The notes: a model not told the origin generated them from the letters alone. Counted from the stretch's first letter, positions 4,996-33,566 are shown. The stretch: 64,000 nt of DNA from a virus (IMGVR_UViG_3300026549_000071:10253-74252); one strand, 5' to 3'. Translations and numbers: made by a program.

Positions 4996-5642
4996 TCATT
5001 ATCTTCCGAAATATTTTCCTTAAAGAAGAATAATAAGCATTCTTGGCCCCTTTTTGGTTTTACAACAGAGATAGATTTCATAGTAAATGGAAGAAGTCCA
5101 GATTCGCAAGCATCAATATCTTCGAAAAGATGTTTCACTTTCCAAGTGTCTTTACTGTCGATATAGAACGTTTCCAGGCCAGGAAGAACTTGATCCCCAA
5201 AGAAACAGATCTTATGTCCTCCTTCCGTACTATTCCATTTGCAAAGTCCATATGGATTGATATTCATTTTCCGAAGGCTATGGTCTGTTGATTTTCTTTT
5301 ATGCCAAGCAATAATATGGCTAACTGCATCTTTGACATAAAAGAGCCATTGATTAACATCATACCCCTCAGAGGCTAAGTAATTCTTCAGGAATTTGTAG
5401 TCATCTTTCATATATGGGGTAAAGGTATAAAGGTCGTTATATTTCTTATAATCACCCTTTTCTTTGTAGCTTCTTCCGACCGCCATGATATTTTCATAGC
5501 AATCTTCTGTAAACGTTTTAAGCTCTTCTATAGCGTTTTCATTTTCATCGCTCAAAGTAATTCGTAACCATACATCAAATCCATCATACATGCTATCTTG
5601 TTTTCTCCATCTTGCCTCATAAGCATCTGTAAACAAACCCAT
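4992..5642 (-). CDS. Hypothetical early protein, 216 aa
   Basis: AGGAGG RBS; early promoter motif at 5699-5708. Confidence 0.8.
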   Translation of the reverse strand: MGLFTDAYEARWRKQDSMYDGFDVWLRITLSDENENAIEELKTFTEDCYENIMAVGRSYKEKGDYKKYNDLYTFTPYMKDDYKFLKNYLASEGYDVNQWLFYVKDAVSHIIAWHKRKSTDHSLRKMNINPYGLCKWNSTEGGHKICFFGDQVLPGLETFYIDSKDTWKVKHLFEDIDACESGLLPFTMKSISVVKPKRGQECLLFFFKENISEDNE

Positions 5643-6695
5643 TATAATATTCCTCCTTTTAAGTTAACGACATGGGTTATTACAACTTATCTAAGGCAAT
5701 AATATATATTCTAAAACAATTTTCAATTTTTGTGTTAAAAATAAAAAGCCGTATACAAGTTACTAAACCCCCCATAAACAAAATTTTAAAAGGTAATTCA
5801 TATAAATCCATTTTATATAAAAATGGTGTTGTAATTATTTTTTAATGCTTTTCCTAGGGGGGTTTTCGTAGCTTTAACTATTCAAAAAAACACGGGTGTT
5901 TTTTTGAATTATTAATAGCTTCGAACTCATATAACTACGAAATACTATTACTCATTGCTTATACTAACTACTTTTACTACGAATATTATTACCCAATACT
6001 TCTACGAAATTATACCATATAACATTCATAAAATGAATATAATATCTGTGATATGTTTATATAAACCTTGGTAAAAATACTATCAACTATAAAGAGTTGA
6101 TAGTATCTATTTTATCTGTATAAATCACTGACGAGTGATTAAGATTGATGGGAATATATGGGTATGATAATCAGTATAGTTACATATATTTTCATATTTG
6201 CAAGAATACATATGGGTTTTGTTTTCACATAGTGAAAACAAAACCCATGTAGACTGATTAGGAGTGTAACAGTATCCGAGAGTAATATAGTATCTATAGG
6301 GAGTATAATTAGTATGATAGGGATACATACGGGTATTAGGGTAATACTAAGTATTACCCTAATACCCGTATGTATAGTATAGAACTGTTTTATATCAATC
6401 TTTACTATAGAGATGTATATTAGCGTAACACATGTATTACCCTGGATTATATATTCTGTACGGTAGAGTATATAATTAATTTTTTTCTGTAACGAAAAGT
6501 AGTATTTACCCTCTAAGTTTTACAAATGATAAACTTCACTCTGAATTTCCCTAGGGGAGAAATCGAGCTAAGTTTAACAAATGTAAAACTTAGGGGTAGA
6601 AAAGATGATATGAGTGATTGAAATGTATCACTCATATCATCTTTTTTGTTACCGTATATGGATTTTATATCTATATAGGAGAAATCATAGTTATC
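5643..6695. other. ~1 kb non-coding, palindrome-rich region; candidate replication origin
   Basis: Perfect inverted repeats at 5881-5908, 6078-6105, 6212-6248 and 6323-6375 (26-bp arms); three CTACGAA direct repeats; C-rich to G-rich switch. Confidence 0.55.
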
Positions 6696-7925
6696 TTACG
6701 GTGCAACTGTCGTCGTTTCCTCTTTTGTGGGATCAACATACTTCTCGAATTCTTTCGAGTCCATATTAAATACCCATGAGGAATTGAGTTTCTTTTCGCC
6801 CTGATTCTTCTTCAGCGTATAGATGTAATCCGGGTCAAGTTTAACCGTGGAAACATCCGGGAGTTGACCATTGCGAATCATAACAACCTTACCGATCTTC
6901 GTGAATTTACCACTGGAAAATTTCGTGACGAAGTTCTGTACGTCATAATACGTTCCATCGACAGCAAGTTTCGTATACGGAAGACGTTGTGTCACCGTAA
7001 TCGGACGTTTCTCTTCTGTGAACGAACCATCCTTATACGTCCAAGCAGAACCTTTCTTACGAGTCTCGGTATCCGAGACTTTTTCATCTGCCGTAAGAAC
7101 ATAGAGTGTCGTTTCCGAGATATTGGATTTCTTCTTATCGTCCGTAGGAATTTCCGGCAGAGAAGAAACCTTCTTCACAGAGAGATCAAGGAGCGTGAAC
7201 GTGTTCGTTGCAGCCGTAAAGGTATAAAGACCCGGATCGAAATGAATGACCTTCGGGTTTCCATTTCCTTCTCCTTCCGTGAAACGGAGAGATGCATCCG
7301 GCTCTTCTTGAGGACGTGTGAGCTGATAGATGACACCTTCCTTACCTTTGACTTCCGCAGAAGGAAGTTTATCCTCAAAGGCAACTTTGATTTCATCCAG
7401 AGCATCTTCTGCATCATTGAGAAGATAGAATTTATCGCTGAGACGATAAACCGTATTCTTCTTCGCAGAGGTTTCATCCGGGAGAGAATCCACGAACTGA
7501 ATTCCCTTATAGGATTTTGCTGTACTCTCAATTCCATGCAGAGCAGCTTCCTCAATGATGCCACGAACCATCGGAGCACTCAGACGAAGCTCATATTTCA
7601 CCGCAGCCGTATCAGTATCAAGCGTCTTGAACGTAACACTGGCATACTTTCCAAGCTGATCAAGAGAAACATCAACGATGATGAGACTCCCATCGGCAGA
7701 CTCCACGAAGTAACCAAGATCCGAGCTCAGTTTTGCATTATAGTATTTATTATGAAGCTCCTTTTGTGCCAGAAGGAATGCATATCCCTTAAAGTAGTTC
7801 AGAAGCTTCACAAAAGAATCTTTCGGAAGTGTGACAGCTCCGCTTGCCGGAACGATAATTTTCACCGTATCGTCAAAGGAAACATATGCGTCAACACCAG
7901 AAGCATTAATTTTCGTAAATGCCAT
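6696..7925 (-). CDS. 409-aa protein with about five 'LP..(n)..T/I-x-Y-x-L' repeats, possibly virion-associated
   Basis: AGGAGG RBS; internal repeats VDSLP..TVYRL, EDKLP..VIYQL, VSSLP..TLYVL, TQRLP..TYY, NGQLP..YIYTL. Confidence 0.75.
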   Translation of the reverse strand: MAFTKINASGVDAYVSFDDTVKIIVPASGAVTLPKDSFVKLLNYFKGYAFLLAQKELHNKYYNAKLSSDLGYFVESADGSLIIVDVSLDQLGKYASVTFKTLDTDTAAVKYELRLSAPMVRGIIEEAALHGIESTAKSYKGIQFVDSLPDETSAKKNTVYRLSDKFYLLNDAEDALDEIKVAFEDKLPSAEVKGKEGVIYQLTRPQEEPDASLRFTEGEGNGNPKVIHFDPGLYTFTAATNTFTLLDLSVKKVSSLPEIPTDDKKKSNISETTLYVLTADEKVSDTETRKKGSAWTYKDGSFTEEKRPITVTQRLPYTKLAVDGTYYDVQNFVTKFSSGKFTKIGKVVMIRNGQLPDVSTVKLDPDYIYTLKKNQGEKKLNSSWVFNMDSKEFEKYVDPTKEETTTVAP

Positions 7926-13808: not shown

Positions 13809-14810
13809 TTACTCCATATTTGCCATCTTACGTAACTGATCTCCAGTTAATTGGAGCATATCCTTCTCAAACTCTGAGAATGTATGATATTCTCCATTAG
13901 CAAATTTCTTCATATAGCTATTGCTCTTCTTATGCTTCTTTTTCTTTCCATATTTATATCCACCAGATTCCTTCAGTTTCTTCTTACGAATCAACTTACG
14001 AGAACCTTTCGAAAGATGCTTCATTCCAACATGAAGTCCAATGCTCTCCAGATAATCCAGCGTCTGCATCTCATCCATTTGCTCTTTCGTCAGAGAAATG
14101 CCTTTATAGAAGACCAGTTTATCTGGGCTCTCTTCTTCATCAAACTCATGAAAGTCCTTCTTATGAAGATATTCTTTATACTTGGCTGTGAAGGAAACTT
14201 TCTTTGGTTTGTGATACATTTCACGAAGCATTCTCTTACGAGCATCTTTCTTTGAAATTTTGATGGGTTTGGTACGATTCGTATAGAACTTATTGATCAT
14301 ATCAATCTCATTCGAAATTTGATTTGCTACGTCAGACGAATCATTCAAATCCATCTTCATTGGATTCATTCCCTTAATGGGTTTGAAACTGAAAGCAAGT
14401 TTTACATGCTTCGGAATCTTCCAATTCGTCGGAATGACTGGCAGACCAAAATCATAATCACATGGAGTTTCCAATGGCATTCCATCATCAATATATTTGC
14501 GATTCTTCTTATTATGCTTCAATTTCGGGCAAAAAGATGGAACGTAATCTTTCACCATTCCAATCTGGAACAGGAATTTCAAACGTTTCATTCCACCATA
14601 TTTATCAATGAGCCATTGACCATATTCCGTATAGATTTCTTTTGCTCTGCACCATTCCCCAAAATCAGAATATTTCCGTTTCAGAGCTCTTACTTTATTG
14701 AGAAGTGGAGTATCTTCCCATTTCTCTTCATCATGATAATCATCTCCGAAATCATTAACCTGAGATTTGAACTCAGGATGATTCGGATATTCATATTCCT
14801 TTACTATCAT
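13809..14810 (-). CDS. Hypothetical Lys-rich early protein, 333 aa
   Basis: AAAGGAG RBS; early promoter motif at 14850-14859. Confidence 0.8.
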   Translation of the reverse strand: MIVKEYEYPNHPEFKSQVNDFGDDYHDEEKWEDTPLLNKVRALKRKYSDFGEWCRAKEIYTEYGQWLIDKYGGMKRLKFLFQIGMVKDYVPSFCPKLKHNKKNRKYIDDGMPLETPCDYDFGLPVIPTNWKIPKHVKLAFSFKPIKGMNPMKMDLNDSSDVANQISNEIDMINKFYTNRTKPIKISKKDARKRMLREMYHKPKKVSFTAKYKEYLHKKDFHEFDEEESPDKLVFYKGISLTKEQMDEMQTLDYLESIGLHVGMKHLSKGSRKLIRKKKLKESGGYKYGKKKKHKKSNSYMKKFANGEYHTFSEFEKDMLQLTGDQLRKMANME

Positions 14811-14944
14811 TTTATTATAAATCTCCTTTCTTTCATTCGATCTAAATAAATAATATATATTTTAATCAACTATTGGATTTTCCGTCTGTAATACCATGTG
14901 AGTTCGAAGGTAAAAAATAAAAAAAAGAAGCTCCAAACTCTCCA

Positions 14945-15028
14945 CTACGTTTTGACCTTCATGAGATTAGAACATGGCATGTATGCACAATCCTGCTGCT
15001 CCGTTAGAAACATAAACATATTCCGCAT
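14945..15028 (-). CDS. 27-aa small ORF (MRNMFMFLTEQQDCAYMPCSNLMKVKT)
   Basis: GAAAGGAG RBS 10 nt upstream of ATG. Confidence 0.45.
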   Translation of the reverse strand: MRNMFMFLTEQQDCAYMPCSNLMKVKT

Positions 15029-15156
15029 TTTGATTCATCTCCTTTCGGATCATAGTAAAATGCGTCTATGTAAACATCGAGTCCATCGCATTTCTCGATG
15101 ATTGATACTTATACAATATCTATTCATATATTATGAAAACCGATATTCCTTTGAAA

Positions 15157-15166
15157 TATATATTAT
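15157..15166 (+). promoter_or_regulatory. Early-type phage promoter motif TATATATTAT (representative copy)
   Basis: Exact copies on + at 15157, 19973, 20299, 22607, 23446, 26421, 34148, 36781, 41585, 43271 and on - at 3361, 5699, 9574, 9918, 14850, 53827, 55356, all intergenic and upstream of a gene or the candidate RNA. Confidence 0.85.
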
Positions 15167-15169
15167 TCA

Positions 15170-16105
15170 TCTAGTTACATAGAAATCGATTTTTGATTGA
15201 CATGATAATAGCGAAAATTGATCTATGAAAATCATGGATATTTAAATTCGTTGATGCACAAACTTAGACTCAATTTGTCTATATATGGGATAAGTACCAT
15301 TCAGTACGTGGAAACGTCAAAGACTTTGCGAGTGGGTTGGTGCTATACACGGGTCAATAATTTCGATCTTATCTCGGCAAATGAAGAGTGATCTTCATTT
15401 GTTTATCGATTCCTTAATAATTGCTCTTTCTGTCATAGAGAGAATAAGCATGGAGGAACGAATGTATCCTTCCCATGTAAAATCCTTAAGGATATCCAGA
15501 GTGAGGGATCATGAATGGGATAGAGGGCAATCTAAGATTCCAATTGAATAATCTTAGGTATTAAAACGTTTCCTCTTGAGCTTCGTGAACTTGCTAGGGA
15601 GAAGATTTGAATGGACCTCGATATCGAATGATGAGATCAATGAGTAAGTCATATTTGGATGATTATGATACGAATAGATATAAGACCAAACGAGCATTCT
15701 CATTCGGTTATGATTGGATAAAATGACAGTAGATATAGATCATAAGAAATTCGTCGTATAGTAAGATACAGCTTGATTTGTTGGTAGGCAATCATAGTAG
15801 AATTTCTTTGGTTAACTCATGATAAAACTCCCGTCATGTATATCGAGTATCGTTGCAATACGATACTTTAACAATGGGATGTGTAGATATATACTACCTA
15901 TCATATCGGTATAATATACAATCTATTTTGGATTTGTATATTCATCGTTCATTTAAGGTAAAGATGCATTGAAAAGACGCTAGAAAATTATCACTGGTTA
16001 TTTCATCCTATAGATGAATCTCACAAATAATTTGCCTTAAGGAGAAGAACGATTTTAACATACAGAAAATACAAAGGATGGATTCTTTCCATCCTTTGTA
16101 TTTTT
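15170..16105 (+). ncRNA. Candidate large (~900 nt) structured non-coding RNA
   Basis: No ORF of 60 aa or more; early promoter 15157-15166; terminator 16066-16105; many hairpins including GNRA-type loops and long-range helices. Confidence 0.7.
16066..16105 (+). terminator. Intrinsic terminator closing the large non-coding transcript
   Basis: AAAATACAAAGGATGGA/TCCATCCTTTGTATTTT followed by T-tract. Confidence 0.85.
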
Positions 16106-16148
16106 ATTTTGGCTTTCACAGTTTAGTATATAGAAGGAGTGTAAGAAT

Positions 16149-16643
16149 ATGAAAGGTAACGAAAAGTTTAAAATGTATACCTTATACGTTGGAAATATTC
16201 CAGTTGTATTTTGTGCAGATCGATGGCTAATTGAGCTGTATATTGTACAACGGAAGTTAGTCGAAAAGAAGTATCAATTTCATCAGGATACCTATGATAC
16301 GTCCATGTATAAAGAGTTTGATGATTATCTTGTATACTATTATGGTTATGCAGTCACGCAACGAGAGCTTAAATATATCGTCAACTCAACAGAGGAATAT
16401 GAATCGTTTCGGAAGTATAAGATTCATTCTCTTCAAGGATTTCTAGAGCGTTTTAATCATACATTAAAGAAATCGGAAAAGAAAGCACTTAAAGAAACGA
16501 TCAAAATCCTAAAGAAGTATACATGCGAAAATGATGACTTTATTGAGTCACAGATTGATACCATCCTAAACCATAATGATATGGTAAAGGATTATATGGA
16601 TGCAACGGATATGTTCCGAATGCATATGGAAGGAGAAATTTAA
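16149..16643 (+). CDS. Hypothetical protein, 164 aa
   Basis: AAGGAG RBS; CACA-N6-TA motif at 16117-16128. Confidence 0.8.
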   Translation: MKGNEKFKMYTLYVGNIPVVFCADRWLIELYIVQRKLVEKKYQFHQDTYDTSMYKEFDDYLVYYYGYAVTQRELKYIVNSTEEYESFRKYKIHSLQGFLERFNHTLKKSEKKALKETIKILKKYTCENDDFIESQIDTILNHNDMVKDYMDATDMFRMHMEGEI

Positions 16644-16644
16644 G

Positions 16645-17454
16645 TTGAGAGATATTAAACTCATTGCAATTGATGGATTAGATGGAACTGGGAAAACAAC
16701 CTTTGCAAAATTCTTATCCAATGATCTTCAATCGGATTATTATACGAATAAGAAGTATGATGCAAGATACCAGCATTTCCCAGTCTATGAATTACAATCT
16801 GGAAAGAAGATCAAAGATTTTCTCTTCCATGAACCAGAACCATACAAGAGAGAAAATATTCTCAAAATGATTGATCTGCAAGAAACGAATCGAATGGAAT
16901 GGACAGATCGTTTGATCTGGGATGACGTTTTAGTTCAAGATGACCGTCCATTGCTGATGATTGCAGATCGTTACATGCGTTCGAATGACATTTACAACGA
17001 AACAAGACTTCCGGATTGGAAGGAACGCTGTATCAATGCAGGAGAACGTGAATATGGAGATCATGCTATTCCAAGACCGGATCTCCAAATTTTTTGTTAC
17101 TGTAACAGAAATCTTCAACGGAAGCGTTTAGAAGCAAGAAAGAATTTGGATCAGTATGAAGCATTAGATCATCTAGATGAACTGAATGATCGTTATATTA
17201 CTTATTTGAAATGGTATATGACGATTGATCGTTTCAAGAGAAATACGGTATTTATTCCCATGCACTTATTTGATCGAGAATTTCTGAAAGAATCTCTGGA
17301 TAATAAAAAATGGAATACGTACTATAAGGAAATTTTGAAAGATTACCTTAGTATTTTCCGTAAGTACATTCTTTCTCAGGAAACGAAAGAAGAATTCGTG
17401 AAAGAAATCAATGAACTCCATGAAGAAGAATTCAATGCTTACTTGGAGTCATAA
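16645..17454 (+). CDS. tmk: Thymidylate (dTMP) kinase; TTG start inferred from RBS
   Basis: IAIDGLDGTGKTT P-loop, IADRY..SN motif, PRPDL.IF. Confidence 0.85.
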   Translation: MRDIKLIAIDGLDGTGKTTFAKFLSNDLQSDYYTNKKYDARYQHFPVYELQSGKKIKDFLFHEPEPYKRENILKMIDLQETNRMEWTDRLIWDDVLVQDDRPLLMIADRYMRSNDIYNETRLPDWKERCINAGEREYGDHAIPRPDLQIFCYCNRNLQRKRLEARKNLDQYEALDHLDELNDRYITYLKWYMTIDRFKRNTVFIPMHLFDREFLKESLDNKKWNTYYKEILKDYLSIFRKYILSQETKEEFVKEINELHEEEFNAYLES

Positions 17455-17540
17455 GAGTAGTTTATTAACAGCAAGAAACAAAGCATTAGGCAGTGTTTCT
17501 TGCTGTTGTTTCTCTACTACGGAAAGGATGTCAGAAACCG

Positions 17541-18308
17541 ATGAGGAAAATGATTCAAATTCATACCATTGGAGATGCTAATGTTTTAAACGCGTCGGTC
17601 CAAAATCCACCTGCAAGTTTTTATTTCATTGAGGGAAACGTTCTTTTTTTATTCGAGTATTCTCCCATGTGCGATGAATATATCCGTCTTCATAAGAAGG
17701 AATTCAAAGCATTGAAGGATATTATTCTCTGTTATACATCTCCAGTTTATATGAATGGAGTACAAGTACATCACTCAACCTTAGTACATGAATTCATTGA
17801 AGGAGTATTTCATTGTATTGATCATCATGATCGAATTCATGTACGCTTGATGACTGTATCTCCAAATTCGAATCCAATTATTATTGATTATGAAAAGCAA
17901 AAAAATGTCATTACTGAAAGAAATATTACGTCACAAGATCCCAATGCAAATATTGTATTTACGAATGAAAGTATCCTCTTTGTAGCAATGGATACCATAT
18001 ATACAAAGAAAGGATATTCTACCATTACCATTTGGAAACAGATGGAAGAAGGATATTGGAGTTGCCTTCTTCACTATACGGGCCGTTTTGGATCCTTGAA
18101 TGAATACACAGTAAAGTTCTTAATGGAACATCCACATGCGATTCTTGTGTATTATATCAATCGTTCGTTCTACAAATCAGATCATAACTTATCAGTAAAG
18201 GAACTCTGTTATCGAATTATGAATACCTTCGATGATATGAGAAATCCCATCACCTTGCTTGGATTTACGAATCCAAACGAGGCAAAATTTATTCGTGAGA
18301 GAATGTGA
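17541..18308 (+). CDS. Degenerate metallo-beta-lactamase-fold-like protein lacking HxHxDH
   Basis: N-terminal IHTIGDA..N..AS...LFLFE and later HYTG resemble an RNase Z-type MBL scaffold, but the metal ligands are absent. Confidence 0.35.
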   Translation: MRKMIQIHTIGDANVLNASVQNPPASFYFIEGNVLFLFEYSPMCDEYIRLHKKEFKALKDIILCYTSPVYMNGVQVHHSTLVHEFIEGVFHCIDHHDRIHVRLMTVSPNSNPIIIDYEKQKNVITERNITSQDPNANIVFTNESILFVAMDTIYTKKGYSTITIWKQMEEGYWSCLLHYTGRFGSLNEYTVKFLMEHPHAILVYYINRSFYKSDHNLSVKELCYRIMNTFDDMRNPITLLGFTNPNEAKFIRERM

Positions 18309-18367
18309 TGCTATGGTAAGTTAATGATCTGCCGCTTTATATCGTCACCGGAAAGTGAGTCACTGAT

Positions 18368-18709
18368 ATGAAAATGAGTAAGACCAAACAACGAAAGGAA
18401 TTGATCCTTCAACGTAAAAAAGATAAATATGGATATTTTGGTCTGTTCCGGATAGAAGAGGTTTATCCCTTCCAATTGTATATGCAAAGGTATAAGCACT
18501 TCAAACTAGCTGTAACCCAAGGAAATGAACTCATTCATATGATAAAAGACGGTTTACACGTCATTGTATGGTACGATGAAAAACTGCGGCAATGTTGCTC
18601 GAATCGATATGGAATGTGCATGTGGTATGTTTACCATACGTTTGATGAAGAATATATGGAAGACTTTTTAGCATATGAAAAGGAGCATGAAATTTATTAT
18701 GCAATCTAA
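18368..18709 (+). CDS. Hypothetical protein, 113 aa
   Basis: Operonic ORF upstream of thyX. Confidence 0.65.
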   Translation: MKMSKTKQRKELILQRKKDKYGYFGLFRIEEVYPFQLYMQRYKHFKLAVTQGNELIHMIKDGLHVIVWYDEKLRQCCSNRYGMCMWYVYHTFDEEYMEDFLAYEKEHEIYYAI

Positions 18710-19571
18710 AGTTAATGTAAAACGAGTAGGAAATGGTGAAGTTGTTTTAATTGCTGGTGGTGGAAAAGTATACAGCGATATTGCAGCAAGGTTCTGTCGT
18801 ACGGAGAAAGATGTTCATGATATCATTGCATCTCCGTATAATAAGAAACTGGTTCAAACTATTTTGGATTCTGGTCATTATGCTGCAACAGAATTTGACT
18901 ACTTCATCTTTGGAATCCAAGGTTACTCTCGTGTAACCGAAACTCAATTGGTTCGCAAGCGTTTAGCCAGTTATTTGATTAAATCTGGTCGTGCAGAAGA
19001 GCACGGGAAACGAAACTTTGATGTTGTTCTTCCGAAAGATCAGAGATTATTGGATCTTCCCAGAGGAGAAGTTCATCTGGATCCATCTCAAGTGATTGTG
19101 GAATATAAAGATGGAGTTAAGATCTCTTTGGAACAGGTGGTTCCATGTTCTACAGCAGAAGTGTATCTGAATAGTGCACAACTGTTAGATGCAATGGCAT
19201 CATTCTATGATGATGCTGTGTTGAATCATGGAATTAAAGAAGAAGACGCACGTTACTTTAAACCTCAAGCAACGGAGTTCAAAGCAATTATTGGAATGAA
19301 TGCCCATGCATTACGGGATTGGTTTAAGATTCGTTGCTGCAATCGAGCACAATCTGAAATCCGTGATCTTGCATGGAAAATGCTTCGTTTATGCAAAGAA
19401 GCTGCTCCAGATCTCTTTGAAGGTGCTGGACCTAGTTGTGTTGCACTTGGTCTTTGCCCAGAGATGGAACAGTGTGAGCAGAATAAAGGAAAGATTCCTA
19501 CATTGAAAGCATTTAAAGAAGCAAAAAATACGAAAGAATACAAAGACTTTGCAAAAGTCATGATGAAATAA
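18699..19571 (+). CDS. thyX: Flavin-dependent thymidylate synthase ThyX
   Basis: GH.AATEF, RKRLASYLIKSGR (RHRxxSxxxxSxR variant), EDARY..P, MNAHALRDWFKIRCCNRAQSEIRDLA. Confidence 0.9.
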   Translation: MQSKVNVKRVGNGEVVLIAGGGKVYSDIAARFCRTEKDVHDIIASPYNKKLVQTILDSGHYAATEFDYFIFGIQGYSRVTETQLVRKRLASYLIKSGRAEEHGKRNFDVVLPKDQRLLDLPRGEVHLDPSQVIVEYKDGVKISLEQVVPCSTAEVYLNSAQLLDAMASFYDDAVLNHGIKEEDARYFKPQATEFKAIIGMNAHALRDWFKIRCCNRAQSEIRDLAWKMLRLCKEAAPDLFEGAGPSCVALGLCPEMEQCEQNKGKIPTLKAFKEAKNTKEYKDFAKVMMK

Positions 19572-19972: not shown

Positions 19973-20270
19973 TATATATTATTACCATAAGATAATGAGC
20001 TAAGCATACTAGAAATGCTTAGCTCATAGCTCCCGAACTAGGAGCAGAAAGGAGGATCACCCAAATGGATAAATCCATCCTCTATTGGTGGCATAAACCG
20101 AATGCCATCGAAGGGCGTTTCGATAGAGATGCCCAATTGAAAGAGGCTATTGAACAAGTAAAGCGTGCACAACGTTTATTCGATAGCCTTGAGGAGAAGG
20201 ATAAGAAAGTTTCTTAATCCTTAACTCAGAAAGAAAGAAGCTATTCTAGTTACGGCTTCTTTCTTTTTTG
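19973..20270 (+). repeat. ACTAG-loop cassette, copy B
   Basis: Promoter 19973-19982, hairpin 19995-20027, hairpin 20029-20045, ORF 20065-20217, terminator ~20230-20270 with TTCTAGT loop. Confidence 0.9.
20065..20217 (+). CDS. 50-aa cassette protein B (MDKSILYWWHKPNAIEGRFDRDAQLKEAIEQVKRAQRLFDSLEEKDKKVS), not in the ORF track
   Basis: AGAAAGGAGG RBS; shares LYWWHKPxAIEGRFDRxAQLKEA with the 9684-9836 product. Confidence 0.85.
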   Translation: MDKSILYWWHKPNAIEGRFDRDAQLKEAIEQVKRAQRLFDSLEEKDKKVS

Positions 20271-28606: not shown

Positions 28607-28697
28607 GGAGCGGTACTCAAGCGGTCGAAGAGGTCAGTCTTGAAAACTGAGAGACCATTCATTTGGTGCGTGGGTTCGAATCCTACTCGCTCCGCCA
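28607..28697 (+). tRNA. tRNA-Ser (UGA anticodon)
   Basis: GGAGCGG/TCGCTCC acceptor stem, TCAGT-CTTGAAA-ACTGA anticodon arm, long variable arm, TTCGAAT T-loop, CCA. Confidence 0.95.
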
Positions 28698-28703
28698 TTT
28701 TAT

Positions 28704-28777
28704 TCTGGCGTAGTTTAATGGTAAAGCACTTCCCCTCCAAGGAAGATTTGTGGGTTCAATCCCCATCGCCAGATCCA
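28704..28777 (+). tRNA. tRNA-Gly (UCC) with atypical C33
   Basis: TCTGGCG/CGCCAGA acceptor, CTTCC-CCTCCAA-GGAAG anticodon arm, U73, CCA. Confidence 0.85.
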
Positions 28778-28783
28778 TTTTAT

Positions 28784-28859
28784 AGCCCTTTAGCCAAGTT
28801 GGTAAAGGCATAGCGCTTTGACCGCTAGATCGCTGGTTCGATCCCAGCAAGGGTTGCCA
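28784..28859 (+). tRNA. tRNA-Gln (UUG)
   Basis: TAGCG-CTTTGAC-CGCTA anticodon arm, TTCGATC T-loop, CCA. Confidence 0.95.
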
Positions 28860-28863
28860 TTTT

Positions 28864-28934
28864 AGGGTCATAGTTTAATGGTAGAACAACGGTCTCCAAA
28901 ACCGTTAGTCATCGTTCGAGTCGATGTGATCCTG
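28864..28934 (+). tRNA. tRNA-Trp (CCA), 3' CCA not encoded
   Basis: AGGGTCA/TGATCCT acceptor, ACGGT-CTCCAAA-ACCGT anticodon arm, G73. Confidence 0.93.
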
Positions 28935-29110: not shown

Positions 29111-30271
29111 TTATCCTTTTTCATACATATCTTTCAACTGATGTTTCAACTCTACAAGGAGTTTCTGTGAAAACATCGTTGGAAGAATACCAATCGTTTG
29201 ACGTGCAAGAACCGATGTTGCAGGAATGCAAGACTCAATTGGCTCATTTGGACGATCAAGAGTATAGGGAGCTTGATCATCTGGAATGACCAAGGCTACT
29301 GTTCCTTTCAAGGCCAGATGATGAGCCATTTTGTCACCAGGTTTCATATTATCAGTAAATTTGATATAGAACTCAATGATGACTCCGTGTTCAATCTTAT
29401 ATCCTTTGACAGCACCTGCTGCATTTGGTTTTACAGGTCCATCAATCTCATAGAAGGTACTTCCTTGATCGGATGGATCGGTAATCTTATATTTCCGAAT
29501 CAGTTTCTTCTTCTCACGAATTCCCTTCCAGTATTTATCAACGATACTACCAAGAGATTTCGAGAGATCAGAGATTTCTTCTGTGCTATAGATGCGAATC
29601 TCATCTACAACCCCAGAGTATTTTGAGCTCAACGTATTCTTTGCCATGGATTTAATATCTTCCCGAAGATCTTTACCAATACCACGGAGCAAGCGGTTTA
29701 CGGATTCTTCATCTGCGGATTGCTCATACGTAATTAATGGCTGACCAACGAGAATCTTATCTCCGACGTTTACAATCTGGGATACCGTAGCATTCGGACC
29801 AAGAATGAGATGCTTTTGCATAACCATCTCCGTTCCCATACGTTTACTTAAACCTTCCGTAATCATATTGGAATCTTCAAAGGTCGCAAATGAACTCATA
29901 ATGGCAATCTTAGAAAGCGTACCAAGATTGAACTTGGCTCCATCATAATGATAGCTATAGTAATCCTTATTCTGTGCGAGAATATCATCTTTCTTAAAAC
30001 GTTGACCTACCTTATACATAGGCAACATCTTATTTTCCAGATAGAATCCACCACCGGCATTCTTCACCATAATGCCATTCAGATTAATGGCTTCATATTT
30101 CCCATTCTTATATTCTGCTACCATCATATTCGTCTTTTTATCAAATTCCACAATTTTACCATCGTCCTGTGCTTTAATGACAAAGTCTTTCGATGCCATA
30201 TAAGGCATCGCTTTTTCAATGCCAGTAGATAACAGAACCGGGCACATATCTTTTACTGGAATCAAATGTTT
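29111..30271 (-). CDS. rpoB: RNA polymerase beta subunit N-part, exon 2
   Basis: KHLIPV, LGTLSKIAIMSSFATFEDS, PGDKMAHHLALKG motifs; joins exon 1 in frame as ...MASKQN|KHLIPV... Confidence 0.88.
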   Translation of the reverse strand, partial: KHLIPVKDMCPVLLSTGIEKAMPYMASKDFVIKAQDDGKIVEFDKKTNMMVAEYKNGKYEAINLNGIMVKNAGGGFYLENKMLPMYKVGQRFKKDDILAQNKDYYSYHYDGAKFNLGTLSKIAIMSSFATFEDSNMITEGLSKRMGTEMVMQKHLILGPNATVSQIVNVGDKILVGQPLITYEQSADEESVNRLLRGIGKDLREDIKSMAKNTLSSKYSGVVDEIRIYSTEEISDLSKSLGSIVDKYWKGIREKKKLIRKYKITDPSDQGSTFYEIDGPVKPNAAGAVKGYKIEHGVIIEFYIKFTDNMKPGDKMAHHLALKGTVALVIPDDQAPYTLDRPNEPIESCIPATSVLARQTIGILPTMFSQKLLVELKHQLKDMYEKG

Positions 30272-30569
30272 CGTTGTATTCACATGGGTCGTTAATCCAT
30301 GCAGTTCTCTTATGAACTTCTATATGTCACCATATAGTCCAGACTATATCTTTATTCCTATTACTAGGAATTGCTCCATTTCGATTTAAGGGATTTTCAC
30401 CCACTCACTTGAGCCCTACTCCTATTGCCGAATTTCACGGCTCCATTTGGATAGTCGTTGAACCTTCTCTTTCGAGCTTGGCTGCTGATTGTCTCTTTTT
30501 AAATAGAGAGTTCCCAGCAATTAAGAGCTAGGAGAATCATAGATTACTCTATGAAACGAACTAAATTTA
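30272..30569 (-). ncRNA. Group I intron (IA-type, 298 nt, no homing endonuclease ORF)
   Basis: P AATTGCTGGGAA, Q AATCAGCAG, R GTTCAACGACTA, S AAGATATAGTCT; P7 GACTA/TAGTC; P1 with U.G at exon-end AAT|TAA; terminal G before AAA CAT. Confidence 0.93.
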
Positions 30570-33566
30570 ATTCTGCTTCGAGGCCATAGCGGTACGAATG
30601 GCATCATCCATGGTAACACCAATGCCATTCACAAGTTCCGAATAACCAAAGAGTTTCGTCTGATCCATTTGATCAGGAGATTCTTTGCAATCAATGAAAC
30701 CTCTTGTATTGGTTACTTTCGGATCAATGGTCAATTCACGTACCACACCACAGTTTGCATCTGGAGATGTACTAATCGTCATACAGCCAATCATCGTTTG
30801 ATCAAAGCAACGTTTTTCTTTTGTATAAGAACGTTCTAGGTTGATACCAGAAGGTCCTTTACATGTGATTGCACGTTCCTTTTCTTTTTCTGTGATTGGA
30901 TTAATGATTGACACATCTTCTACGACGTTACTCGTCAAGATTTCTTTGATGATAGCATCTTTCGGTAACGAAATCTTTTCTGGTGTTGCATATTTTGCCT
31001 TACGTTTGTAATTGGAGTATGATGCAGAAAGTGCTTTATAGAGATAAGCACTAATCATTTCCAAGTTACGTACACGGAATTCTGTTAAGGAAAGTTCCGA
31101 TGAGGAAGCATTATCCGACAGAAGATCGGACGCTGCAAGCATCAATTGTACGAAATCCGTAGGCAAATCCATTTGCTTTAAGATCTCTTCACTGATTGGA
31201 TCAATCATATTATCATAATACGCATCCAAACCAGATGCCAATGCACGATTGCTATACTTCATATCAAAGAAATCCAAGTATGGCATTTGTGTATCGAAAT
31301 CAGAATAGTTATATGCTTTCGTATCAATAAATGTCAATCCGCTCATAAGAAGAGAATGAGCCGTTGGAGTTAAGCTGTATACGAGATACCCATCTGCGAA
31401 CTGAATGGCTGCTTGATCAACTCCAAGATCTCTCGGATTCTTATCCGTAAAATGATACTGAATACCTTCCTTATTCATGACGGTTGTTAAACCTTCAAAA
31501 TAGCTAAGGAAGATAATACTCGGAATCATCTTATTCATAACCTTGCAAGCAGAATACATGAAACGCTTACCTGGTTTATCTTTTGGACCTTGAAGATCCC
31601 AGAAGTTCTTTCCAGTTTCTTTCTCATAGATATGAACGAATGTATCAATAGGTCCATTTAACGTTTCTTTTCCATCATCTTTTTCCGTTCCATCGGATTC
31701 AATGGGACAGACGTATGCTTTTATCTTTGCATTCTCACGTCCATCATAAACACAGTAAATGTATTTATCATCATTGATATCTTCCAGTTTCTTATCATGG
31801 CGAAGTTCATCATAGAACTTTTGATCAAACTTCAAACCGATTCCTTTTCCACGAATGGTAATCCCTGAGAATTCTTTTGCAAGAGAATCATACTCAATCG
31901 AAGTCATATGACCATTATTGACACCCATACCATTTCCTCGTTTTACCTTGAAAATGGCAGGATTATTTGCAATGATTTTCTTGAAGATCGTTACCTTCGG
32001 AGAAACTGTATCGCCTAAACGATATACAAAGATCTTATTATAGTTCGTGCAAACCTGAACACGATCCGCAGAGATTTTAATCAACGGTTTCAAAATCTGC
32101 TGATTGACGAATTGCTTTCTGTTACCAGCAAGATAGAGATAGTTGTTATCATAGACCTTAGGAATATCTACCGTGACACTGTGACGAACTCCATCTTCCG
32201 TCTGAAGTTTTACCGTCCAAGTTTCCTTCAGATCCATTGCAGTTGATGTATCTTCACGTTTGATGTTCGTAATCACAGCAGGAAGATTTTTCTTCTTATT
32301 CAGGGAACGAAATACATTGATGATATCCTTATCCTTGACGTTTTCATTATACGATTTATTGATGTTATCGAAACGAATTTTCTTTACGCTCTTATTTGGC
32401 GTAAAGAGTTTATCCGAGATATCGTCCGATTCAATCGTATAATCAATCTTTGAAGTATCTTCCAAATCTCCTAAGGAGATATTATCCAACTTCAGTTCTT
32501 TCTGTTTCTGACGAAGTGCTTGAAAACGTTTATTTTCCGGAGCTGTACGATTCATCTCCTGAAAATTCGTATCAATGGCTTTCTTCGCCAATTCCATCTC
32601 ATCTTCAGTAAGTTCTTCATGTGTTTTGACAGGATCTTCCTCTGTAAGATCTGCCTTTGGTTCTTTTTTATCAACGATTGTAGTCGATGCAGGAGTAGGA
32701 ACTGCACGAGGAGATGATTTATCTTCCTCTTCTTTTTCCTTCTGCTGAATCTTTTCAACTTCTTTTTCTTTCTCGATTTTCTCTTCTTCCGTTTCTGGAG
32801 AGAGATCCAAATTGATTTCTTTTGATTTGCATTTATTCATGCAAGAATAGAGTTTCATACTGATTTCTTTTTCCGTATGACTCATATCCCAGTAGAACAA
32901 ACCAAACGTATCATCGAGAATAATCAATGTATAATCCTTTAATGGCTCTAAACCTTCAGGATCTTTCTTTAGGAGTTCATAAAACATTGAAATCGGATTC
33001 ATCATCTTCTGATTAATGCTCATGACTTTCGAACGATTACTGGTACTAATTCCCCACGATTTCGTATCCAAAATCAGGTAACGGTGTTCATGGTTCAATC
33101 CAGCACAAACTGTTTTCAGGTAACGAGCAAGATGCCGCACATACGATTTGCAGAGTATGGGATAATTCTTTCCCTTAGAATGTTCCAAGAAAGCACTATT
33201 TACATCACTCGTATCCACAAAGATATTCTTATTACGAACTCCCGCTGGTTTCGTATAGAGTGTTAATTTGAGTTTCTTTACATCATTCGACAGTGTTGCG
33301 ATTTCACTTGCATCCATCTTTTCACGGATGGTTGTTGTGAAGATCTTATCCGTATAACGAAACGGTTTATAATACCGAGCAAATTTAGAGTCTCGATACA
33401 GTAACAGATTCTTCAAGATATCTGAACACTGTGTTGGGTTTTTAATCAAGAGACCAATGAAAGTTCCTTCCAAAGGTTTCTTTGGATCATATGGGAGTCG
33501 GGTAAGTGTGGTCTTATATTTCAATTCACCATAGTCTTCCAGTTTATTCGCCATATGAGAATTCAC
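30570..33566 (-). CDS. rpoB: RNA polymerase beta subunit N-part, exon 1 (spliced product about 1385 aa; probably virion RNAP)
   Basis: GPSGI..ER, STSPDANCGVVRELT, DDAIRTAMASKQ motifs; GGAGGTG RBS; GACA-N6-TA at 33600-33611. Confidence 0.88.

Follow-up and report, generated by a model that had tools for sequence, protein, structure and literature searches.

A probable stand-alone early transcription unit for an orphan long non-coding RNA in an AR9-like jumbo phage of ruminants

We asked what a phage makes from the largest gap between its open reading frames (ORFs) when that gap carries a promoter and a terminator of its own. The window, i.e., the whole stretch of 64,000 nucleotides that was analysed, is part of a 74-kb IMG/VR virus record with an estimated completeness of ~30%. 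The RNA polymerase beta-like protein (999 aa) of this phage shares ~31% identity with its counterparts in jumbo phages of Staphylococcus, Listeria and Bacillus (AR9, PBS1), and the stretch is contained in bovine and sheep gut (rumen) sequencing runs from 13 studies; therefore, we regard the source as an uncultured jumbo phage of ruminants that is distantly AR9-like. The ORF-poor interval comprises 1338 nt (14811-16148) and lies between flanking genes on opposite strands, one at 13809-14810 (-) and the other at 16149-16643 (+). It is the largest gap between ORFs of at least 80 aa in the whole window. The transcription unit within it, hereafter the RNA unit, occurs as a single copy in the 74-kb record.

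Natural variants of the locus were collected by exact look-ups of the variants of the neighbouring 164-aa protein, which gave 44 contigs of the same rumen phage population. The full unit was present in 26 of the 44, representing 18 distinct haplotypes that were 93.3-99.1% identical. Essentially two alleles were found, A (the window) and B (contigs L003 and L013), and the rest were recombinants.

The original prediction had stated that no ORF of 60 aa or more is present, and this was borne out under genetic code 11, code 4 and TAG read as Q. Allowing ATG, GTG or TTG as the start codon, the longest ORFs in 14811-16148 were 57 and 56 aa, the longest stop-to-stop frame was 85 aa, and the alternative codes (table 4, TAG=Q) opened no long frame in the RNA unit. 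The longest frames had no protein homologues except gene-caller calls on the same locus, and tblastn of the ORFs of the closest relative and of all window ORFs against the RNA region revealed no homology. Between A and B there are 9-10 single-base indels, distributed over 15179-15924, and no reading frame could survive them. These indels, together with a single-nucleotide change that creates a stop codon in the best-placed small ORF (see below), rule out coding.

We then considered how the unit begins and ends (Table 1). Early promoters of AR9 have been mapped experimentally as AAATATATATTAT-N6-G(+1) and are used by the injected virion RNA polymerase (PMC5312081). The sequence TATATATTAT at 15157-15166, after which the unit had been proposed to start, is the core of a complete AAATATATATTAT motif, confirming an exact early promoter of the AR9 type. 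The window contains 19 exact TATATATTAT cores, including that of the RNA unit, and the promoter motif with at most one mismatch is enriched (42 sites versus 17±4 in shuffles). Most exact cores are followed by N6, A/G-G and then a ribosome-binding site and an ORF within 20-40 nt. At the RNA unit, the 6-nt spacer TCATCT is followed by A15173 and G15174, with no ORF downstream; from this layout, the transcription start is predicted 6-7 nt past the promoter, at A15173 or G15174. The promoter of the B allele reads GGAATATATATTAT, a form that also occurs at other promoters of the phage. The divergent twin promoter of the leftward operon and that of the RNA unit lie in regions that form a 50-nt imperfect inverted repeat (72%). 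At the other end, the strong terminator that had been predicted to close the unit was likewise found, with a T-run behind its hairpin. It is constant in all variants except L015, which is altered in the loop and at the base directly preceding the stem and nowhere else in the terminator. We conclude that the locus is a genuine stand-alone promoter-to-terminator unit on the + strand, with an early-type promoter, for an orphan and probably early long non-coding RNA.

Table 1. Features of the RNA unit and its promoter region (window coordinates).
Feature	Position	Strand	Remarks
Divergent twin early promoter, exact AAATATATATTAT	14850..14862	-	Serves the leftward operon (gene 13809-14810)
Early promoter (virion-RNA-polymerase type), AAATATATATTAT	15154..15166	+	13/13 match to the AR9 early consensus
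Non-coding RNA, primary transcript ~930 nt	15173..16105	+	Accumulating species may start near 15301-15303
5' hairpin CGAUUUUUG/CGAAAAUUG, 9 bp	15187..15220 (15187-15195/15212-15220)	+	Pair probability >0.5, four haplotypes
Perfect 10-bp hairpin CAAAUGAAGA-GUGA-UCUUCAUUUG, GNRA-type loop	15378..15401 (15378-15387/15392-15401)	+	Pair probability >=0.95, four haplotypes
Hairpin AUCUAAGAU/AUCUUAGGU, 9 bp, variable 12-nt loop	15530..15559 (15530-15538/15551-15559)	+	Pair probability >0.5, four haplotypes
14-bp helix GAUCAUAAGAAAUUC/GAAUUUCUUUGGUU	15738..15813 (15738-15752/15800-15813)	+	Pair probability >=0.83, four haplotypes
Hairpin UAUCGU-UGCAAU-ACGAUA	15848..15865 (15848-15853/15860-15865)	+	Pair probability >0.5, four haplotypes
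Hairpin AAUAUAC.../...GUAUAUU, remodelled tip	15913..15942 (15913-15919/15936-15942)	+	Pair probability >0.5, four haplotypes
3' domain, closed by AUCGUUC/GAACGAU and UUUAAGGUAAA/UUUGCCUUAAG; inner hairpin UUCAUC-CUAUA-GAUGAA	15944..16053	+	
Intrinsic terminator, perfect 18-bp stem, 5-nt loop, U-rich tail	16065..16114 (hairpin 16065-16105)	+	

Metatranscriptome contigs of three studies cover the RNA unit; such contigs show neither the strand, the ends nor the abundance of an RNA and carry no timing information. Long pieces identical to the window measured 925 nt (15117-16041) and 768 nt (15303-16070), and the third study contributed overlapping pieces over 15301-15950, with B-type variants among them. 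Word depth was 32.5, 40.4 and 9-15 for the pieces of the unit versus 2-7 for short flanking pieces, while it was flat at 34.7 in a sheep DNA run; only assembled contigs were compared, from runs chosen because they contain the stretch, and contig depth cannot rank expression. Given these caveats, we take the data as presence in RNA libraries and as a suggestion that the RNA is highly abundant. The spacer at 14912-15112 was without a contig in three RNA runs and covered in the DNA run, although uncovered parts prove nothing. In two studies, the RNA contigs begin at 15301/15303, where the DNA contig continues. This is a weak hint of the 5' end of the accumulating species; a break in the assembly graph, at the T/- polymorphism of position 15300, is an equally good explanation.

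We propose that virion RNA polymerase would start at ~15173/15174 right after injection and that transcription would stop at the terminator hairpin, leaving an ~930-nt RNA and no protein; both steps are read from the promoter and terminator sequences. This phage lineage brings its own RNA polymerase; therefore, the RNA would belong to the earliest molecules produced in the infected cell. An AR9-type early transcript would, in addition, be expected early and without any need for protein synthesis. Once folded, it may act early and in trans as a scaffold or decoy for a host or phage factor, the proposed mode being neither antisense pairing nor service as a messenger. The longest antisense complementarity between the RNA unit and the rest of the window was a run of 14 nt versus 12-17 nt in shuffles, and this chance-level value favours trans action over antisense. 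Such an RNA would found a family of its own, outside GOLLD, ROOL and any catalogued class. We place at roughly an even chance the reading that the stand-alone early unit produces a structured RNA that leaves the template at the terminator and works in trans by means of its shape, as is supposed for other large phage RNAs, and we favour it over a long leader or a transcribed remnant.

The position of the unit allows another interpretation. A nucleotide-metabolism operon (16149-19571) encoding the 164-aa protein, a dNMP kinase-like protein, proteins of 271 and 113 aa and ThyX follows downstream, the start codon at 16149 lies only 43 nt past the terminator, and the next exact + strand early core occurs only at 19973, which leaves the operon without an early promoter. 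The promoter at 15154 might then really serve this operon, and the RNA unit might be its long untranslated leader with an attenuator, the conserved 3' domain tuning read-through. The RNA is most conserved where it borders on the terminator, and RNA-library contigs also exist for 16142-16886, as this reading would expect. However, the terminator is very strong and almost invariant, and 930 ORF-free nucleotides far exceed the 20-40 nt of leader in the phage's other early units. None of the Rfam leader, riboswitch, T-box, antiterminator or 6S families matched the RNA unit. In addition, no RNA contig of the three studies bridges the terminator, which may simply reflect the palindrome, and the operon could instead be served from 16117-16128, where cACA-N6-TA nearly matches a late-type promoter. 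The AR9 late motif AACA-N6-TA is not enriched in this phage (25 sites versus 45±7 in shuffles) and, therefore, cannot decide whether the region from 16149 onward has its own promoter. We consider a leader function unlikely.

Next, the two alleles were compared along the unit. They differ at 41/771 positions (5.3%) in 15173-15936 and at 0/169 in 15937-16105. In eight neighbouring genes, the synonymous divergence (pS) was 0.053 and the nonsynonymous divergence (pN) was 0.008; the upstream part of the RNA unit thus diverges at a level equal to pS, as expected under weak or no constraint. The invariance of the 3' part may reflect constraint, or else a recombination boundary at ~15936. The 3' domain was predicted to fold into two stacked closing helices with inner hairpins, and its minimum free energy (MFE) structure is the same as the centroid (z -2.3). 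Of the 10 sites that vary in this domain among all haplotypes, 7 fall at unpaired positions, which is not significant. Taken with the fold comparisons below, the haplotypes indicate that the sequence probably diverges about as fast as synonymous sites yet keeps common helices, with the last ~170 nt hardly changing.

Folding energy was assessed against shuffled sequences, a test that the original prediction had itself named. The full 936 nt gave -250 kcal/mol (z -5.4) on the + strand versus -209 (z -4.1) on the - strand. Without the terminator, the z value was -2.8, while seven coding stretches of equal length from the same genome ranged from -2.5 to -7.7, and 200-nt windows inside the unit folded no better than the flanking genes. 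Coding controls scored as well or better; therefore, we rejected MFE relative to shuffles as evidence of structure. The energy is ordinary beside coding stretches, i.e., the hairpins visible by eye do not rise above the genome background, and on this point the prediction failed. Relative to a structure computed from the window alone, variable sites were not depleted in pairs (42/608 versus 21/336; 63 substituted positions), and 18 changes kept a pair versus 23 that broke one, a result that also holds at high pair probabilities.

We then examined whether the natural variation fits a shared fold. In the haplotype alignment, the consensus fold energy was -234.6 versus about -252 for single sequences, a small loss. 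Displaced-variation tests, in which the same changes at other positions cost much more energy, were run with minus-strand and coding controls; they gave z values of -3.9 and -4.5 and were judged biased, as was the single-sequence MFE test. The reference itself is a tip of the tree, which creates a winner's curse; therefore, we replaced these tests with a two-branch simulation of the structure conservation index (SCI). An RNAalifold consensus with variable columns at 22/608 paired versus 55/343 unpaired positions was given no weight, since such a consensus is itself shaped by the variation. The SCI, i.e., the ratio of the consensus energy to the mean energy of the single sequences, was calculated for the two most distant haplotypes, the window and L013. 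For the null, the observed changes were kept in their clusters and classes and dealt randomly to two branches and to positions, starting from one ancestor.

On the + strand, the SCI was 0.911 versus 0.848±0.019 in the null, whose maximum was 0.889; none of the 64 simulations was as high (z 3.3). When changes were placed only at the same base, the null was 0.842±0.022, and again no simulation reached the observed value (0/49). The signal was weaker on the minus strand (z 2.5, 0/22). Two coding controls gave z values of -0.19 and +0.07, indicating that the test is calibrated, and all four sub-segments of the unit were positive (z 1.4-2.9). As the variation consists essentially of two alleles and their recombinants, this result rests on one deep comparison. 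Strict covariation was scarce at a divergence of only ~6%: one consensus fold contained a single double-compensatory pair and the other contained none. The double change, A15268>C with U15333>G, converts ACUC/GAGU to CCUC/GAGG at 15268/15333. Wobble-compatible single changes numbered 19-25 across the consensus folds, nearly all from G-C or A-U to G-U on the + strand. Long-range pairing is not the same in the consensus of 11 sequences as in that of 18. These sequence comparisons provide moderate evidence that selection may keep a set of mostly local helices common to the alleles. The original prediction of a large ornate RNA is therefore upheld in part: natural variation fits a shared fold beyond neutral simulations, and a covariation-supported ornate architecture is not borne out.

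Separate folding of four haplotypes predicted 14 helix segments, making ~10 stem-loop elements, with a pair probability >0.5 in each. Five of the helices originally picked out by eye were recovered among them, in addition to the terminator, while some of the long-range pairings compete with alternatives. For GGGATAAG/CTTATCTC and TATGATTG/CAATCATA, the competing alternatives are equally good, and there is no variation that could test them. In the B allele, U15194>C turns a U-G pair of the 5' hairpin into C-G. The GUGA stem-loop, which also appears in the list of inverted repeats, is shared unchanged by 17 of the 18 full-length haplotypes, and a partial contig (L020) carries T15389>G in its loop. 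All four variable sites of the hairpin at 15530-15559 (15541, 15542, 15543 and 15546) lie in the loop, and the changes at 15760-15765 are within the loop of a GUAU/AUAC hairpin. The pair G15847-C15866, beside the UAUCGU hairpin, becomes G-U in the B allele. The hairpin at 15913-15942 carries four linked changes in that allele (deletion of 15924, G15930>U, A15932>G and U15935>C) and, as read from the sequence, would be kept through a U-G pair and a bulge. The 14-bp helix at 15738-15813 encloses two small hairpins (15756-15769 and 15771-15798). It had not been listed among the helices seen by eye.

Several of these results would also suit a transcribed remnant, in which the promoter and terminator are still live while the body, left by one or more decayed early genes or by a rearrangement junction, drifts neutrally. 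The substitution level equals the synonymous level, the indel-to-substitution ratio is ~0.2, the folding energy is ordinary, and strict covariation is almost lacking. The closest relative phage shares 51% identity in the 333-aa neighbour and differs in gene order around the homologue of this protein, which places the RNA unit at a synteny break. Moreover, a small gene ~100 nt from the unit is demonstrably decaying in the haplotype of the window, through a 190-nt deletion. However, by the SCI test the changes are not neutrally placed, with coding controls behaving as the null, and no frame shows protein homology, the genes of the relative included. In addition, the 930 nt are complete in each of the 26 full-length copies (18 haplotypes), with 1-nt indels only, despite large deletions 100 nt away; the intact length of the unit, next to a spacer that shows a 190-nt deletion or replacement among strains, also counts for the structured RNA that we favour. 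Phage genomes rarely retain ~1 kb of useless, strongly transcribed DNA, which also counts against a remnant. On balance, we consider this explanation rather unlikely.

It is improbable that the transcript serves as a messenger for one or more micro-peptides. The candidates are a 29-aa ORF (15462-15551) and a 6-codon ORF at 15611. The former is the sole ORF with a strong ribosome-binding site, GGAGGA placed 4 nt before the ATG at 15462, and gene callers call an ORF of 56 to 71 aa in this region on some contigs. However, G15518>A (TGG>TGA) in the B allele shortens the 29-aa ORF to 18 codons, and the remaining allele differences in it are nearly all in first or second codon positions. The ORF has no homologues and occupies <10% of the transcript.

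By analogy with T4 and ColE1, an early RNA from a region of divergent promoters and a skew switch could prime or activate replication. The promoters here are divergent and the cumulative GC skew has a local minimum near 15000-15300; however, the skew switch coincides with a switch in gene orientation, of which the window has several, and the strong terminator releases the RNA. Moreover, repeats, iterons and enriched k-mers (GGA and SD-like motifs included) did not exceed chance, and there are no repeat arrays. An origin transcript is thus very improbable.

Finally, we compared the RNA unit with known families. Scanning the whole window with 4227 Rfam families at the gathering score gave no match over the unit, while the same scan recovered the group I intron of the window (30320-30578, 90.7 bits). 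At E <=10 with permissive filters, cmscan of 14700-16300 and of allele B (L013) detected no GOLLD, ROOL, OLE, intron, tmRNA or RNase P in either allele, the output being noise from the terminator hairpin only. Accordingly, the suggested membership in a known ornate class was not supported, and the stated lack of group I/II intron, tmRNA and RNase P signatures was confirmed; nor are the flanking genes, being on opposite strands, exons of one gene, as an intron would require. ARAGORN found no tRNA or tmRNA genes in the unit. The Rfam scan recovered four tRNAs of the window, and the tRNAs nearest to the unit (28607-28934) are 12.5 kb off. ROOL was first found in the cow rumen. Size, phage origin and rumen habitat recall ROOL. 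GOLLD is described as having a less conserved 5' region and a universally conserved 3' region (10.1101/2024.12.08.627333), which resembles the variable 5' and conserved 3' parts seen here. Even so, the idea of a divergent member of a catalogued class (GOLLD, ROOL, OLE, raiA, group I/II intron) that the models missed is close to refuted by these scans, which detect the group I intron and nothing over the unit, and by the distance to the tRNA cluster.

Homologues were also sought by sequence. Searching 50,697 phage records with blastn ('distant') revealed no homologue of the RNA unit, and exact 22- and 24-mers in IMG/VR and JGI metagenomes returned only a contig already in the set. A search of IMG/VR for close relatives of both flanking proteins and of the RNA polymerase beta-like protein led to no RNA homologue, and nhmmer did not find the unit on the contigs of the closest relative. 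With a covariance model built from the 3' domain, five AR9-like genomes gave no match (one hit, E 0.15, was at chance level), and the 74-kb record of the phage itself gave the self match and no second copy. In the data searched, homologues do not extend beyond one phage population, and a 'class' can therefore not be defined.

The trans-acting structured RNA that we favour is similar in general kind to other large phage non-coding RNAs and shares none of their sequences or models. RNA-only homo-multimers (cages or dimers), seen by cryo-EM, are a trait of GOLLD, ROOL and OLE. Like GOLLD and ROOL (RF01998, RF03087; 600-900 nt), it would be a long, abundant, phage-encoded non-coding RNA without an assigned function, and, as in GOLLD, conservation is seen in the 3' part (170 nt). 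Unlike them, it matches no covariance model, lacks the usual tRNA neighbourhood and a covariation-supported multi-pseudoknot architecture, occurs in one phage population and has a G+C content not above that of the genome. A tentative extension, which we think possible and less than probable, is that the RNA founds a new family of large structured RNAs in AR9-like jumbo phages, which the injected virion RNA polymerase would make in the opening minutes of infection. A 5' body that evolves fast and a 3' domain (15944-16053) that is fixed might together form a defined particle and capture a host factor, e.g., a nuclease, a ribosome component or an RNA-sensing defence protein, as an RNA-based tool for take-over or anti-defence. 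It would be analogous in scale to GOLLD and ROOL and unrelated to them.

GOLLD, ROOL and the RNAs of phages PA5oct and K form a standing puzzle, in that they are big, abundant and conserved and have no assigned function. The RNA unit adds a case with unusually clean boundaries, namely an early promoter of a type known from experiment and a textbook terminator, and the two alleles ~5% apart, with their recombinants in many rumen samples, amount to a natural experiment. With structure and a partner confirmed, it would represent a new family among the large functional RNAs of phages; otherwise, it would show that hairpins seen by eye and z-scores from shuffles overstate structure in AT-rich phage genomes.

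Transcripts ncRNA001-004 of PA5oct are ORF-free, abundant and 236-619 nt long (PMC7318152), and phage K likewise has ORF-free abundant lncRNAs (PMC9241854). The RNA unit resembles these as an ORF-free promoter-to-terminator unit of a jumbo or large lytic phage that is highly represented in RNA data. However, it is longer, has an early promoter for the virion RNA polymerase instead of a host-type promoter and shows no sequence similarity to any of the 50,697 phage records. With the early units of AR9, it shares the identical consensus AAATATATATTAT, N6, the purine start and an end at a hairpin terminator; the described AR9 units are protein-coding with short leaders, whereas the RNA unit runs ORF-free for ~930 nt.

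The two divergent early promoters flank a spacer (14939-15144), which is the remnant of a deleted small gene. Other strains carry at the same place an intact minus-strand ORF of 78 aa or 81 aa (MRNMFMLL...GLCMHAMF). In the window, approximately 12 codons from the N-terminal end and approximately 10 from the C-terminal end are left, and they are fused out of frame because the gap is approximately 190 nt shorter. In a relative phage, a small ORF homologous to the spacer ORF lies directly upstream of its homologue of the neighbour gene 13809-14810.

Features located in the window
Feature	Position	Strand	Remark
Early promoter core	5699-5708	minus	left edge of the ORF-free stretch 5642-6696
Remnant ORF	14966-15040	minus	lies in the spacer 14939-15144
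Group I intron	30320-30578	minus	Rfam 90.7 bits

The nearest relative phage (Logan contig L022:1-10341) showed 51% identity in the 333-aa neighbour protein and has the early promoter AAATATATATTAT in common with the window phage. In L022, ThyX and the 329-aa gene are encoded on one strand, separated by six other genes; one of the two lineages therefore has an inversion or rearrangement, the breakpoint of which coincides with the RNA unit, the candidate non-coding RNA of approximately 930 nt.

Contigs assembled from RNA libraries of two different studies shared starts at 15301/15303 and 16142/16143, the latter just upstream of the start codon at 16149. Either these starts are RNA ends or the assembly broke there because of polymorphism at sites 15300 and 16113.

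The early promoter of the window phage is identical to that of AR9. The AR9 late-promoter motif AACA-N6-TA was under-represented across the whole window (25 sites vs 45±7 in shuffles), and the late promoters of the window phage probably differ from those of AR9.

Another stretch of approximately 1 kb without ORFs was observed at 5642-6696. It is dense in strong hairpins and contains several terminator-like sites; an Rfam search at the gathering score matched no family there.

The group I intron is flanked on one side by ORF 29111-30283 and on the other by ORF 30567-33566, which is RNA polymerase beta-like; therefore, the polymerase gene of the window phage appears to be interrupted by an intron, as is that of AR9.
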